Below, piece by piece: positions 17,290-59,353 of a DNA stretch of 64,000 nucleotides. The position numbers and the translations under genes were made by a program. This DNA is from Escherichia coli 042 (GTDB lineage: Bacteria; Pseudomonadota; Gammaproteobacteria; Enterobacterales; Enterobacteriaceae): the NCBI RefSeq assembly GCF_000027125.1, contig NC_017626.1; one strand, given 5' to 3'. Every line of letters starts with the position of its first letter. Within the stretch, counting starts at the first letter, position 1. The notes beneath the pieces are model-generated. The model saw only the letters and a program-made list of their open reading frames with translations, did not search any database and was not told the DNA's origin.

Positions 17290-17553
17290 TAAATGGGTTG
17301 TGGTGATTTCTCTGATAGACCAGGATTATGACTACGAAAAGATTGATGACTTGAATGTTATGGTTATGTTTAATGTTAGCACATTTACATAACTTTCAGC
17401 TTCCATACACAACATAGCAGAAATGTATGACAGCTCACTATTTTTGAAGCTGGTCACAGGACGTCATTATAGTGTGTGTCAGATCTCGTTTTCCTTAACC
17501 ATGTTACATAGAATGTGCACGGAAATTTAACCTGCCTCATATTTGGAGCAAAT

Positions 17554-18756
17554 ATGGACCGCGTCCTTCATTTTGTACTGGCACTTGCCGTTGTTGCGAT
17601 TCTCGCACTGCTGGTAAGCAGCGACCGCAAAAAAATTCGTATCCGTTATGTTATTCAACTGCTTGTTATCGAAGTGTTACTGGCGTGGTTCTTCCTGAAC
17701 TCCGACGTTGGTTTAGGCTTCGTGAAAGGCTTCTCCGAAATGTTCGAAAAACTGCTCGGATTTGCCAACGAAGGGACTAACTTCGTCTTTGGTAGCATGA
17801 ATGATCAAGGCCTGGCATTCTTCTTCCTGAAAGTGCTGTGTCCAATCGTCTTTATCTCTGCACTGATCGGTATTCTCCAGCACATTCGCGTGTTGCCGGT
17901 GATTATCCGCGCAATTGGTTTCCTGCTCTCCAAAGTCAACGGCATGGGCAAACTGGAATCCTTTAACGCCGTCAGCTCCCTGATTCTGGGTCAGTCTGAA
18001 AACTTTATTGCCTATAAAGATATCCTTGGCAAAATCTCCCGTAACCGTATGTACACCATGGCAGCAACGGCGATGTCCACCGTGTCGATGTCCATCGTTG
18101 GTGCATACATGACCATGCTGGAACCGAAATACGTCGTTGCAGCGCTGGTACTGAACATGTTCAGCACCTTTATCGTGCTGTCGCTGATCAACCCTTACCG
18201 TGTTGATGCCAGCGAAGAGAACATTCAGATGTCCAACCTACACGAAGGTCAGAGCTTCTTCGAAATGCTGGGTGAATACATTCTGGCAGGTTTCAAAGTT
18301 GCCATTATCGTTGCCGCAATGCTGATCGGCTTTATCGCCCTGATCGCCGCGCTGAACGCACTGTTTGCTACCGTGACTGGCTGGTTTGGCTACAGCATCT
18401 CCTTCCAGGGCATCCTGGGCTACATCTTCTATCCGATTGCATGGGTGATGGGTGTTCCTTCCAGTGAAGCACTGCAAGTGGGCAGTATCATGGCGACCAA
18501 ACTGGTTTCCAACGAGTTCGTTGCGATGATGGATCTGCAGAAAATTGCTTCCACGCTCTCTCCGCGTGCTGAAGGCATCATCTCTGTGTTCCTGGTTTCC
18601 TTCGCTAACTTCTCTTCTATCGGGATTATCGCCGGTGCGGTTAAAGGCCTGAATGAAGAGCAAGGTAACGTGGTTTCTCGCTTCGGTCTGAAGCTGGTTT
18701 ACGGCTCTACCCTGGTGAGTGTGCTGTCTGCGTCAATCGCAGCACTGGTGCTGTAA
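17554..18756 (+). CDS. nupC: nucleoside:H+ symporter
   Basis: ORF 17515..18756; start trimmed to ATG 17554 ([13 protein letters not shown]...) giving 400 aa. Confidence 0.9.
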
Positions 18757-18766
18757 GACCATACAT

Positions 18767-18798
18767 AAAAAAGCCGGGGATCATTCCCCGGCTTTTTT
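18767..18798. terminator. bidirectional rho-independent terminator between nupC and pdeA
   Basis: aaaaaagccgggga-tcat-tccccggctttttt, perfect hairpin with A/T runs on both sides. Confidence 0.8.
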
Positions 18799-18805
18799 AC
18801 GCCTG

Positions 18806-20995
18806 TTAATCAGCTAATGGCTGCGGGCGACCAATCAAATACCCTTGCAGATATTGCACCCCGAGCTTATGCAATAGCGCCTGCTGCTGTTGCGTCTCGA
18901 CAAACTCCGCGACCACACTCAATGACTTCGCTTTCGCCAGATCGGTAATTGATCTCACAATCATCGCATCCAGCGTATTCGTGACGATATCTTTCACAAA
19001 GACGCCATCAATTTTGATGATATCAGCCTGCAAACGCTTTAACCGTTCGTAGTTGGCATAACCGGTGCCAAAGTCATCAATCGCAATCCGGAAACCAAAC
19101 TTATGCAGTTGCTCGATGTTGTACATGCTGCTTTCTGCGTTAGAAAACGCCTGCTCCTCGGTGATCTCAAGAATGACCGCCTGCGGGGAGATGTTATAAC
19201 GCTTAAACAGACGAATAATCCGCCCGGCAATATTCTTTTGCAGCAGCGTGAGCGGCATTAAATTGACTGAAAAGCGCGGGCCTTTTTTGTCGCAAGGATG
19301 TGTTGCCAGCCACTTCAACAGGGATTCCAGCACTTGCAAATCAAAACGCGCGCTAAGGTTAAACTGAGCAATAAGGGGCAGAAACTTATCCGGGGTCATA
19401 ATGCCACCGTCATATTTCAGTCGCGCGAGGATCTCATCATAACCTTCACCCTCTTTGTTGCGAATTGGCTGGGCGTAGAGCAGCAAATCACCCTGATCTA
19501 ACGCCGTGCGAATGGTATTCAGCAATAGCACCTGTTTAGTGGTCTGCCCGGAAACCATCTCCTCTCTGCTATCCAGCGCCAGCACATGGTGATGTGCGCA
19601 GGATTGCTCCGCCAGCCAGCTTAACTGCCCCAACAAGGGTTGCAGGGTTTCCTGATTTCCATCAAAACGCCCCCAGGCAGCACCATAGCCCATATCCAGC
19701 CCGGTATTGTTCCAGTGAATTTGCCGACTATTCAGGATGTTAACCATATGCTGGAGTCGCCCTTCCGTTTCCGGCCCACTCAGCACTAACAGCAGTTCAC
19801 TACCCGGCAATTGATACAACTTTTCATTTTCCTGCATCAACGGCAGCAGCGTACGGTAAATTGATCGGATACAGTGAACGCGCATCATTAAGCCGTAATG
19901 ACGACTCATAAACTCAAGATTATCAATGCGCAGGCAGCAAAAACTCTTGCCCGCCTCTTGCTCCGGCGCTTGTTCTAACGCACGAAAGTTGGGTAGGAGC
20001 GTTAACGGATCGGTCAGCGCCTGCAAATGCCAGCGGCGATTAAGCCATTCACTGCGATGATAAATGCGCACCATATAGAGCAGGCAAACGCTAAAGGAAA
20101 TCAGCACCGCGAGAATAAATGCCAGCGAATATTCGGTTTCCACCCCTTGCAAAAAGTTCTGGTTGTAATTCAGAAGGCAAAGCGTTGAAACAGCCCAGGT
20201 GAGATTTAAAAACGGATAGCGGAGCTTACCGACCCCGAGGGTAAAGATAATGAAGAAAACGGGCACCAGGTAACCGGCAATAAAGTCATTTTCATACGGT
20301 GTGCACAGCAGAAGTAGCAGCACGCTTAACGCTGCCAGCCAGCTTAAGGTAAATGCGCGTTTCTCTTTGCCCAACGACGGAGCGATATCCCTGCGCCACA
20401 ATATCTGCGCAAAGTGGGGACTTACAATCATGCGAGTGAGATAGTAGAAAAGCATGTTGTAAATCAGCACAGCGGTGAAAAGGCTTAGCAAATCAACGAC
20501 CGTGAAAATGGCATCCGCATCGCCGAAAAAGGTGGATATCTTTAGCGGGAAATCAAAGAAGCTCCCCACAAGATACATGCTGCATTTGATGCCGATCGGC
20601 GTCACCAAACCAAGCCAGAACAGACGTTGCCAGACATATCGGCTGGTCAATCCATAACGCCAACGCGTCCCCAGCTGCCAGCGTAATATTGCGCAGGCAC
20701 ACAACACGACAAACGTCTGGCTGCCGAGCATGACCGCAGTCTGTAAAAAAGAGAGATGAAAGTTCCACAGATTGGTGCAAAACATCCCGCATAAAACGGG
20801 AACGACACCGCGCCAGCCAAAGATAAACAAGATTGACAGCATTACGCACAGTGGCATCCACGCCAGAAAGATATAACTGGAATGGATAATGGCAAGTGGC
20901 GAAATAAAACGGGATAGCTGAATAAGTACCACGGTGAGCGTAAACGCTAGTGTGAATATCTTGATATTTTTTATCAGGTTATGCTCCACAAACAT
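18806..20995 (-). CDS. pdeA: c-di-GMP phosphodiesterase (MASE1, GGDEF-like and EAL domains)
   Basis: ORF 18806..21055; start trimmed to ATG 20995 (MFVEHNLIKN...) giving 729 aa; recognised as YfeA/PdeA. Confidence 0.85.
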   Translation of the reverse strand: MFVEHNLIKNIKIFTLAFTLTVVLIQLSRFISPLAIIHSSYIFLAWMPLCVMLSILFIFGWRGVVPVLCGMFCTNLWNFHLSFLQTAVMLGSQTFVVLCACAILRWQLGTRWRYGLTSRYVWQRLFWLGLVTPIGIKCSMYLVGSFFDFPLKISTFFGDADAIFTVVDLLSLFTAVLIYNMLFYYLTRMIVSPHFAQILWRRDIAPSLGKEKRAFTLSWLAALSVLLLLLCTPYENDFIAGYLVPVFFIIFTLGVGKLRYPFLNLTWAVSTLCLLNYNQNFLQGVETEYSLAFILAVLISFSVCLLYMVRIYHRSEWLNRRWHLQALTDPLTLLPNFRALEQAPEQEAGKSFCCLRIDNLEFMSRHYGLMMRVHCIRSIYRTLLPLMQENEKLYQLPGSELLLVLSGPETEGRLQHMVNILNSRQIHWNNTGLDMGYGAAWGRFDGNQETLQPLLGQLSWLAEQSCAHHHVLALDSREEMVSGQTTKQVLLLNTIRTALDQGDLLLYAQPIRNKEGEGYDEILARLKYDGGIMTPDKFLPLIAQFNLSARFDLQVLESLLKWLATHPCDKKGPRFSVNLMPLTLLQKNIAGRIIRLFKRYNISPQAVILEITEEQAFSNAESSMYNIEQLHKFGFRIAIDDFGTGYANYERLKRLQADIIKIDGVFVKDIVTNTLDAMIVRSITDLAKAKSLSVVAEFVETQQQQALLHKLGVQYLQGYLIGRPQPLAD

Positions 20996-21165
20996 GAGTA
21001 CACTACTCTCACTGATCGGGGTTTTCAGGCACACAAATAATAAGTTTATTCGCATCGCGAAGCAAACAGGGGCCAGCCTGTTGCCGATTTTTCATCCAAT
21101 GATGCTTTCACCAGGCGGCACTAACCCGGACGTAGACTGTATTACAAAAGCGGCAAAAAGCAGAG

Positions 21166-24521: not shown

Positions 24522-24609
24522 GCTATATGCGGTTTGTAAGATTGATTTTTCTTCTCAAGTTCCTTGTTCTTCTGCCGATATTACCTCGTACAGTGACGAG
24601 GACTGAACA

Positions 24610-24951
24610 ATGGCCACTATCTCTCCAACTTCAATTCCTTCCATACAAACACAGAGTAGTAACAGGGCATCAGAAGGTAGCGATGTTGCTTCACAAATTG
24701 CGCGGATAAGTCAGCAAATCATCAAACTCACTCAACAAATTAAAGAGATTGCAGACACTAGCGGCAGTGCTGAAGACAAGCAAAAACAGGCCGAATTGAT
24801 TCAGCAGCAAATCACCCTACTGGAAACACAACTGGCGCAGTTGCAAAGACAGCAGGCAGAAAAAGCGCAGGAGAAAGAGCAGCGTTTGTCTCTGAATGCA
24901 TCCCTTCCAAATCCTGTTGAAAAAACGACTCAGATCGATATCTATATCTGA
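24610..24951 (+). CDS. orphan Q/E-rich coiled-coil protein, possibly FlxA-like (113 aa)
   Basis: ORF with GAGGA SD 7 nt upstream; Ser/Thr-rich N-terminus, heptad-like Q/L/I repeats, C-terminal QIDIYI; FlxA-like call is from memory only. Confidence 0.5.
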
Positions 24952-37506: not shown

Positions 37507-37557
37507 ATACTGTATTTGCCGGCAGCAACAACTGTTGACAAAGTGCGCTCTGTTTAT

Positions 37558-37655
37558 GCCGGATGCGGCGCAAACGCCTTATCCGGCCTACAAAATCATG
37601 CTAATTCAATATATTGCAGAAATATCGTAGGCCTGATAAGCGTAGCGCATCAGGC
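37558..37655. repeat. REP pair (BIME) between yfeS and cysM
   Basis: gccggatgcggcgcaaacgccttatccggcctac and gtaggcctgataagcgtagcgcatcaggc. Confidence 0.7.
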
Positions 37656-37694
37656 AGTTTTGCATTTGTCATCAATCTCAAGTGCTATTAATCC

Positions 37695-42551: not shown

Positions 42552-42721
42552 TGCGCACCCTTATAAATTTAATGACTTTCTAATAGCCATCATATTTATA
42601 ACGGACGTGAAAGGAGTAACGGTTTTATATACCGTTTGGTGATTTGGAAGTTGAAAAGGGAATAAGAACCGGGTTCAAGACGAAATCCTCCCCACAAATG
42701 CAGGGAGGAAACAGAGGTGAA

Positions 42722-46991: not shown

Positions 46992-47081
46992 ATGAAACGG
47001 ACAATGCTCTGTCTTTCTCTGCTGGCTGTCAGCTGTAGCGTCAGCGCCGCAAAATACCCTGTTCTGACAGAAAGTAGTTGA
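46992..47081 (+). pseudogene. 29-codon remnant ORF, possibly the 5-prime end of yfeW (PBP4B)
   Basis: ATG 4 nt after murP stop encodes MKRTMLCLSLLAVSCSVSAAKYPVLTESS then stop (signal-peptide-like); K-12 has the ~430-aa yfeW here (from memory). Confidence 0.4.
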
Positions 47082-47109
47082 TCAAGTGTATGCGGCGTTA
47101 AAGCAGTAA

Positions 47110-47146
47110 TAAAAAGGCCAGTCAGTTGTGATACTGGCTGGCCTTT
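47110..47146 (-). terminator. rho-independent terminator of yfeX
   Basis: minus strand: hairpin aaaggccagccag/ctgactggccttt with one G-U pair, followed by a U-tract. Confidence 0.6.
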
Positions 47147-56211: not shown

Positions 56212-57615
56212 TCAGGAAGGAAATGCGAGTGATTTCACCGTCACCGGCACAACCGATCCGCCAAAAAGAGGCGTACCAATGTCGATATAGTCCCCCGCGC
56301 GGACAATCACTTCGTCAATGACTGCCAACGGGAGTTGCTGTAGCTGTGGGCGCAACAACATGCCCAGAGCTTTACCAAAGTCCTGCCCGGCCACCACCAG
56401 CAGGGGATGCGGATTCGGAAAACGCGCGACGAAATCGACCAGCGCGTTGATGACCGTCAGTACCGCGGCGTAACGCACAGGCAGCGAGGCGGGAAGCGCC
56501 AGCACGTACGCGTCAGTTTTGGGGCAAAGATCCAGCTGAATCAGCGCCTGTTGCCAGGCACTCACCAGATCCGTTTCATCAATTGGGATCGCCACCGGCA
56601 AATTGCGCAGCGGCAGTTGTACGCCCTCCAGCCAGATTGTGCTGCCAGAGAGCGAAAGGGTATGTGCACCCGCGCCAATCACCGTGGCACGTACGGTTTG
56701 CGCTGGAAACTGCACGTTCATCTCACGCAGGCGCGGATGGTCATGCAGCGCCGTTGCCAGAAGCGGGCCGATATCGGCAAAACAGAACGGATCGGCGGGC
56801 TGGTGGCGATAACATTCGCCCACGCCGCCAGAAAGCGTAATGATTTCGGGCGTAACACCTGCGGGCAGCAAACCGGTTTGCATCAATGCCTGCGCGAGCG
56901 GCGAGAGCGTTCCGTCGATCACTTCGACAATCAGCTCTGCCATCCGGCGGGTAACCTGCACCAGCTGCGCGCCGGTCAGCGAACGGGCGTCAGTGCCAGC
57001 ACCGAAGCACTCATCCACAATCATCTGCCCCGGTTTATGAGCGTAAACCACGCGCCCCTGGCTGTCGGTTTCCAGCAGGCGACCGCCGACGTTGAGGCAG
57101 GCGGTGCCGCTGATTTTTCCGGCATCGAACAGGGCGTAGTTCGCGGTGCCACCGCCGATATCGATATTCAGTACCCGACACAACCGTTGTTCAGAAAGGG
57201 TTTGCGCCCCGGCACCGTGACCGGCGATCACGGATTCGAGATGCGGCCCGGCGCTGGCGACGACAAAATCGCCCAGCGATTGGGAGAGCGTCATCACCGC
57301 CGGGCGAGCATTGCGGGTTTTCGCGCTTTCACCGGTGATGATGATGGCACCAGAATCAACGCTTTCCGGCGCAATGCCCGCAGCCTGGTATTGCTCGAGG
57401 ATTAAGGTTTTCAGTTCCGCTTCTTTTAAACCACCCTGTTTATCGACAGGGGTAAAGAACACCGGGCTTTGCCAGCTAATTTCGCGTTTGATGAATTCGT
57501 AGCGCGGCACCTGCGACACCGCCGCACGGTTAACCAGCTCCAGGTGGGAGAAGATCACCTGGGTGGTGGTGGTGCCGATATCGATACCGACGCTCAGTAG
57601 CTGGCGAGTGTTCAC
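56212..57615 (-). CDS. eutA: ethanolamine ammonia-lyase reactivating factor
   Basis: 467-aa ORF recognised as EutA; ends 11 nt upstream of eutB start. Confidence 0.95.
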   Translation of the reverse strand: MNTRQLLSVGIDIGTTTTQVIFSHLELVNRAAVSQVPRYEFIKREISWQSPVFFTPVDKQGGLKEAELKTLILEQYQAAGIAPESVDSGAIIITGESAKTRNARPAVMTLSQSLGDFVVASAGPHLESVIAGHGAGAQTLSEQRLCRVLNIDIGGGTANYALFDAGKISGTACLNVGGRLLETDSQGRVVYAHKPGQMIVDECFGAGTDARSLTGAQLVQVTRRMAELIVEVIDGTLSPLAQALMQTGLLPAGVTPEIITLSGGVGECYRHQPADPFCFADIGPLLATALHDHPRLREMNVQFPAQTVRATVIGAGAHTLSLSGSTIWLEGVQLPLRNLPVAIPIDETDLVSAWQQALIQLDLCPKTDAYVLALPASLPVRYAAVLTVINALVDFVARFPNPHPLLVVAGQDFGKALGMLLRPQLQQLPLAVIDEVIVRAGDYIDIGTPLFGGSVVPVTVKSLAFPS

Positions 57616-58868: not shown

Positions 58869-59351
<483 letters not shown>

Positions 59352-59353
59352 AT

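Follow-up and report, generated by a model that had tools for sequence, protein, structure and literature searches.

Insertion sequence IS186 inserts almost only at sites of the form 5'-GGGG(N6/N7)CCCC-3', which it can enter in either orientation (Lee et al. 2016, PMC5009759). The K-12 genome has only 54 such sites, some of which are hit repeatedly (PMC5009759). The lon promoter is an IS186 hot spot (SaiSree et al. 2001, cited in PMC3045373), and the lon, fimA and menC hot spots have received the element in both orientations at one position. A second group of described systems comprises the bidirectional terminators of convergent genes (Ju et al. 2019, as presented in bioRxiv 10.1101/2022.10.23.513370; predicted sets in PMC1852404), in which, as far as these sources describe them, a convergent pair shares one hairpin bordered by mirrored A and T runs, and both transcripts end in a U-tract.

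The junction between nupC and pdeA (yfeA) in the 64-kb stretch of DNA that we analyzed, hereafter the window, resembles both groups. It has the convergent gene pair, the single hairpin and the mirrored runs of the terminators of Ju et al., and differs from these, as they are presented in the sources above, in that it is predicted from sequence and is destroyed by IS186 in K-12. Like the known IS186 targets (PMC5009759), it contains the exact motif, with an N6 core, and like lon, fimA and menC it has been entered in both orientations at one position. Unlike them, the target lies within a predicted terminator hairpin between convergent genes and not in a promoter or coding sequence, and the evidence comes from natural isolates, whereas the known hot spots come from laboratory transposition events. 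The IS186C copy of K-12 (NC_000913.3) occupies the same locus between the same flanking genes; compared with the reconstructed K-12 allele, the window is unoccupied, its loop is TCAT instead of TAAT, and its right arm has GGC instead of GGT. The literature that we searched contained no mention of an IS186 site at nupC-pdeA, and no paper containing both 'IS186' and 'nupC'. We consider it highly probable that the spacer is one Rho-independent terminator common to nupC and pdeA that doubles as an IS186 target and is empty here.

The spacer and its hairpin

The sequence-only reading of this DNA had placed the last base of nupC at 18756 and the pdeA stop from 18806, with 49 bp between them containing a single perfect hairpin with A/T runs on both sides; the list of open reading frames, the spacer sequence and our folds all agree with this (Table 1). 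The nupC stop codon is TAA (18754-18756), and the pdeA stop codon occupies 18806-18808 on the minus strand. The longest open reading frame of nupC begins upstream, at a GTG at 17515, and the RefSeq homologues of pdeA are 2,190 nt long, which would place its start near 20995. Both gene names are taken from the annotation of a RefSeq chromosome that is 100% identical to the window over 1,049 bp. Pfam matches are consistent with these names: the nupC product has the Nucleos_tra2_N, Gate and Nucleos_tra2_C domains (E = 2e-62 for the C-terminal domain), and the pdeA product has MASE1 (3e-67) and EAL (2.5e-59) domains, together with a GGDEF match that falls under Pfam's cut-off.

Table 1. Coordinates of the features at the nupC-pdeA junction of the window
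Feature	Position	Strand	Sequence or size	Basis
nupC, nucleoside:H+ symporter	17554..18756	+	400 codons plus stop	ORF list
Spacer between the two convergent stop codons	18757..18805		49 bp, gaccatacatAAAAAAGCCGGGGAtcatTCCCCGGCTTTTTTacgcctg	
A6 run, U-tract of the predicted pdeA terminator on minus-strand RNA	18767..18772			sequence
Stem-loop, predicted bidirectional intrinsic terminator hairpin	18773..18792		GCCGGGGA-TCAT-TCCCCGGC	folds and synteny
IS186 target motif GGGG(N6)CCCC, unoccupied	18776..18789		GGGGATCATTCCCC	motif per Lee et al. 2016, PMC5009759
10 bp duplicated around IS186 in CH4796 and CB209	18778..18787		GGATCATTCC	junction sequences
T6 run, U-tract of the predicted nupC terminator on plus-strand RNA	18793..18798			sequence
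pdeA (yfeA), MASE1-GGDEF-EAL c-di-GMP phosphodiesterase	18806..21055	-		longest-ORF coordinates

The spacer is laid out as gaccatacat-AAAAAA-GCCGGGGA-tcat-TCCCCGGC-TTTTTT-acgcctg. The left arm of the stem-loop (18773-18780) and the right arm (18785-18792) form a perfect 8-bp stem of seven G-C pairs and one A-T pair around a 4-nt loop (18781-18784), and the stem reaches 14-15 bp once the A and U runs pair. The minimum free energy of the 49-nt spacer RNA was -25.0 kcal/mol on the plus strand and -30.8 kcal/mol on the minus strand (z = -7.18 and -7.59, respectively), values that none of 200 shuffled sequences equaled, and the stem-loop by itself folded at -17.0 and -16.1 kcal/mol. These dimensions fall within those of intrinsic terminators, which have a GC-rich stem of about 5-14 bp and a loop of 3-8 nt. 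UUUUUU lies directly 3' of the stem on both strands (18793-18798 on the plus strand, 18772-18767 on the minus strand), and the hairpin sits shortly downstream of each stop codon, the stem beginning 16 nt past the nupC stop and 13 nt past the pdeA stop. The two genes, nupC on the plus strand and pdeA on the minus strand, thus converge on an A6-stem-loop-T6 arrangement of the kind expected for a bidirectional terminator. The transcript of either strand would fold the same 8-bp GC-rich stem and 4-nt loop, with six U residues directly after the stem, and the same hairpin would end nupC transcripts on the plus strand and pdeA transcripts on the minus strand. We therefore infer from these features that termination would occur in both directions. 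The earlier description of a shared bidirectional terminator holds as regards a single hairpin with two-way intrinsic features, while termination itself is a prediction.

A simple terminator scan called the hairpin on the plus strand only, in a truncated 5-pair form. Its total of 7 calls compared with 5.2 in shuffled sequences adds little, and we relied on the explicit folds instead. A promoter-like match on the minus strand at 18780-18809 (TTAACA, an 18-nt spacer and AATGAT, 9/12) overlaps the pdeA stop codon and the hairpin; it is probably a chance match, as the scan returned 8 sites where 5.6 were expected from shuffled sequences. An Rfam search of 18400-19200 gave hairpin-centered matches to SpF25, ar35, STnc390 and mir-1992, all far under the gathering scores, and we rejected these as generic terminator matches.

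A different role for the hairpin can be envisaged, in which it mainly causes converging RNA polymerases to pause and to terminate on collision, or, as a 3' stem-loop, shields both mRNAs from exonucleases. Stable 3' hairpins stabilize mRNA, and this general background favors a protective role. The collision role draws on bidirectional terminators of convergent E. coli genes that reportedly terminate poorly in one-way transcription and need polymerases to collide where the hairpin makes them pause (bioRxiv 10.1101/2022.10.23.513370). Unlike those terminators, the nupC-pdeA site has full canonical intrinsic features both ways, with an 8-bp stem of -16 to -17 kcal/mol and six U residues right after it, and we consider it unlikely that pausing or protection is its main role. 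Pausing at collisions, protection and intrinsic termination are not mutually exclusive; because the hairpin has the canonical intrinsic features, a collision role is possible, but would not be required.

The palindrome could also have arisen by chance or belong to a dispersed repeat family of the REP/BIME kind, and would then have no function particular to this locus. REP/BIME elements do adjoin the hairpin in some genomes (our loci L005 and L018, described below), and its 21-nt pattern was found in 15 unrelated bacterial genomes. However, no shuffled sequence among the 200 folded as well, and the palindrome is kept at the syntenic position in species that are 7% diverged. Most E. coli have it at a single place and none at more than two (median 1 and maximum 2 per genome for a 73-bp junction query), on which basis we rejected membership in the REP/BIME family. 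The matches in unrelated taxa share nothing except the hairpin with the window, as expected of generic GC-rich terminator stems. The probability that we give to a chance or repeat origin is close to negligible, and a terminator specific to this locus is the reading that we retain.

The species in which the hairpin occupies the syntenic position are E. whittamii and Escherichia sp. E1V33, both about 93% identical to the window. Our scan of genome contigs used a hairpin pattern so strict that E. albertii, E. fergusonii, E. marmotae and other genera were missed, and returned 18 loci: two syntenic Escherichia loci, one E. coli-like contaminant contig, and the 15 others. Hairpin alleles vary at the second loop base, which is A or C, and at the outermost stem pair, where the GGC of the window is GGT in K-12-type alleles, a change that yields a G-U pair on one strand and A-C on the other. 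In E1V33 the variant position (GGCA) adjoins the stem on its 3' side. Among the alleles compared, none showed compensatory changes within the stem; conservation and energetics support the predicted structure, short of proof by covariation. The exact 73-bp junction of the window is a minority allele, with 53 records at 99% identity or more.

Several genomes show other arrangements at this junction. In E. coli MFDS1019527 (L005, 1500-1650), a variant nupC-pdeA spacer has two hairpin copies around a REP/BIME-like insert of about 60 bp, and E. whittamii Sa2BVA5 (L018, 9235-9455) has the same architecture around an insert of about 150 bp. The U-tract of each copy in these spacers is good solely for the far-side gene, and each transcript would therefore cross the REPs before reaching a proper terminator. 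A BIME-like element elsewhere in the window (37533-37685) is 83% identical to the E. whittamii insert between the hairpins (L018, 9276-9427). E. coli ST2747 (NZ_CP007394.1; L004, 3150-3520) is without nupC entirely: the sequence that follows mntH/ypeD runs into pdeA some 70 bp short of the 3' end of that gene, the match to the window starts only at about 18875, and the annotated pdeA product has a C-terminus that is longer and different. The contaminant contig (L020, NZ_VLXZ01000152.1), a 289-bp record in an assembly of Alkalicoccobacillus porphyridii, is 98.3% identical to window positions 18606-18894 and has an empty hairpin allele of the K-12 type; in this Bacillales assembly it is almost certainly a contaminant from E. 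coli.

The IS186 target and its occupation in K-12

The GGGG(N6)CCCC motif inside the hairpin is the only one in the 64-kb window, and no N7 version was found in the same 64 kb. The G4/C4 core of the hairpin thus doubles as a canonical recognition site for the IS186 transposase. At the homologous position an insertion with a target-site duplication is documented. The sequence-only reading stated that K-12 has an IS186 copy between nupC and yfeA, and the annotation of MG1655 (NC_000913.3) bears this out, with IS186C (2514273-2515617; insL3, b2394) lying between nupC (b2393) and pdeA (b2395), as does alignment of the window to the K-12 interval. What that reading overlooked is that IS186C lies inside the hairpin. 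The K-12 junctions read ...GCCGG-GGATAATTCC-CATAAGCGC...GCGCTTATG-GGATAATTCC-CCGGTTTTTTT, or, more widely, ...AAAAAAGCCGG-GGATAATTCC-IS186-GGATAATTCC-CCGGTTTTTTT..., where GGATAATTCC is the duplicated sequence. The element measures 1,339 bp between the outer ends of its terminal repeats, and 10 bp covering the loop and inner stem are repeated on either side of it; as the element terminates in C...G, a length of 10-12 bp would fit the duplication. With IS186 and one duplicate taken out of the K-12 sequence, the hairpin re-forms, and strain AS19, which has an empty K-12-type allele, is identical to the sequence so obtained.

In occupied genomes, the 1,339-bp element has entered the loop and inner stem, duplicating 10 bp and parting the two stem arms, which leaves neither gene with a terminator-like hairpin. 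The predicted folds of K-12 are consistent with this outcome: transcripts across its junctions fold like shuffled sequences (z = -0.93 and +0.23), and the remnant hairpins, at -6.0 and -5.1 kcal/mol, are followed by no U-tract. Since the arms are 1.3 kb apart, the folds are shuffle-like and the weak remnants are without a U-tract, K-12 probably no longer has the native terminator of either nupC or pdeA. K-12, which is used for nearly all mapping of transcript ends in E. coli, is atypical at this locus, and because both predicted native terminators have been lost to IS186C, nupC and pdeA 3' ends obtained from K-12 ought not to be generalized to the species.

The window itself is free of IS186 at this junction, as had been claimed. 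A search of the window for the 23-bp terminal inverted repeat CATAAGCGCTAACTTAAGGGTTG, which the earlier reading had proposed as a check, gave no matches even with 3 mismatches allowed, and the complete IS186C, compared with the window by blastn, returned only chance matches of 13-17 nt; the terminal inverted repeats and IS4-family transposase gene by which IS186 is recognized are thus absent from the window. The intact target would stay open to insertion if IS186 is present elsewhere in the same genome.

Recurrence and frequency of the insertion

Four occupied strains, K-12, EC17CM12, CH4796 and CB209, each carry a 1,339-bp element with a 10-bp duplication. The K-12 insertion is in one orientation (A) and duplicates GGATAATTCC, the allelic form of the window's sequence. 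EC17CM12 has IS186 at the K-12 position with an identical duplication, but there the element points the other way (orientation B). CH4796 and CB209 carry it in orientation B and duplicate GGATCATTCC, which corresponds to the loop allele of the window. Because both orientations and two duplication/hairpin alleles are represented, at least three independent insertions of IS186 at the nupC-pdeA hairpin are distinguishable from the junction sequences.

To count occupied sites, junction-specific 400-bp queries were run against 5,426 complete E. coli genomes. IS186 was found at the junction in 937 genomes (about 17%), 472 in the K-12 orientation and 465 in the opposite one, and the junction was intact in 4,460 of 5,424 genomes (about 82%); these counts are raw across clonal sampling, and the set includes many K-12 laboratory derivatives. 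IS186 was present somewhere in 2,210 of the 5,426 genomes, and about 42% of the genomes bearing it have the nupC-pdeA site filled. The site is a clean natural case of the GGGG(N6)CCCC rule for IS186, and indicates that a GC-rich terminator stem is able to present the motif.

The parallel insertions might reflect selection, acting on 3'-end processing of nupC and pdeA, on antisense read-through or on c-di-GMP signaling, and not target preference alone. This idea takes its basis from the persistence of the insertions in at least three backgrounds and in the above share of IS186-bearing genomes, and from the removal of the predicted terminator from both genes at once; we judge it distinctly unlikely. 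The K-12 orientation sets the transposase gene on the same strand as nupC, directly downstream of it.

Lineage of the window and origin of the empty site

The window is colinear with MG1655 2,495,491-2,570,000 at 97.1% identity, and it lacks four K-12 features: IS186C, the xapR-xapB-xapA-yfeN block, yfeW, and the CPZ-55 prophage in eut. The sequence-only reading had pointed to a non-K-12 Escherichia lineage on account of differences in eut, xap and yfeW together with the empty junction. Alignment to MG1655 confirms these differences, and the identity and indels bear out the lineage. The best match over 25 kb among the 5,426 complete E. coli genomes was 99.5%, and only 13 records reached 99% or more; judged by these sequence comparisons, the window is from E. 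coli of a sparsely sampled non-K-12 lineage. The empty junction as a sign of lineage fared less well. It excludes K-12 but says little else, because the empty state is that of the majority and is polymorphic within the window's own lineage, and the non-K-12 inference is carried by sequence identity and the other indels, not by the absence of IS186. As the insertion recurs independently and varies within lineages, its presence or absence at nupC-pdeA is unfit as a lineage marker. The finding is the common state of a well-known locus, and is of little importance beyond careful annotation.

The closest complete-genome relative of the window, CH4796 (99.5% over 25 kb), is itself occupied, and its duplication is of the window's own allele. 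An ancestor of the window could accordingly have carried IS186 as CH4796 does, and precise excision, which would yield exactly the window's sequence, could have restored the hairpin. Against this, LSC52, 2021CK-01784, CB6837, ECA64 and strain 135, all of the 99.5% group, each gave one uninterrupted query-length alignment and are thus without the insertion. The junction is also empty in sister species as well as in the large majority of E. coli, being intact in O157:H7, O111:H8, O25b:H4-ST131 and strain 536 among the matches listed, and excision is rare, with one excision in 857 IS events in mutation-accumulation lines (PMC5009759). It is simpler to suppose that the element inserted within the CH4796 sub-lineage, and restoration by excision seems to us highly improbable. 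Because sister species and diverse E. coli are empty and excision is rare, the empty state would most simply be ancestral, with the insertion arising inside the CH4796 sub-lineage.

The other differences from K-12 lie as follows. At 24536-24941, just after the valU-lysV tRNA cluster, the 4.4-kb K-12 block xapR-xapB-xapA-yfeN (NC_000913.3 2521530-2525929) is replaced by about 400 bp of unrelated sequence with short ORFs only. At 47074-47115, downstream of murP, about 40 bp stand in place of the 1.4 kb containing yfeW (penicillin-binding protein 4B; K-12 2548184-2549594). At 42673-42678, the window is without about 128 bp that K-12 has between cysP and ucpA (2543655-2543783). The cryptic prophage CPZ-55 (K-12 2558709-2565481) is absent at 56212-56234, so that eutB directly adjoins eutA in an unbroken eut operon; about 23 bp there are shared by the two BLAST segments and probably represent the attachment-site repeat. 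In the eutH-eutG spacer (58869-59352), a tandem 100-bp BIME-like unit of paired REP palindromes is present in 4.8 copies with a 97% match, compared with about 185 bp of this unit in the same spacer of K-12.
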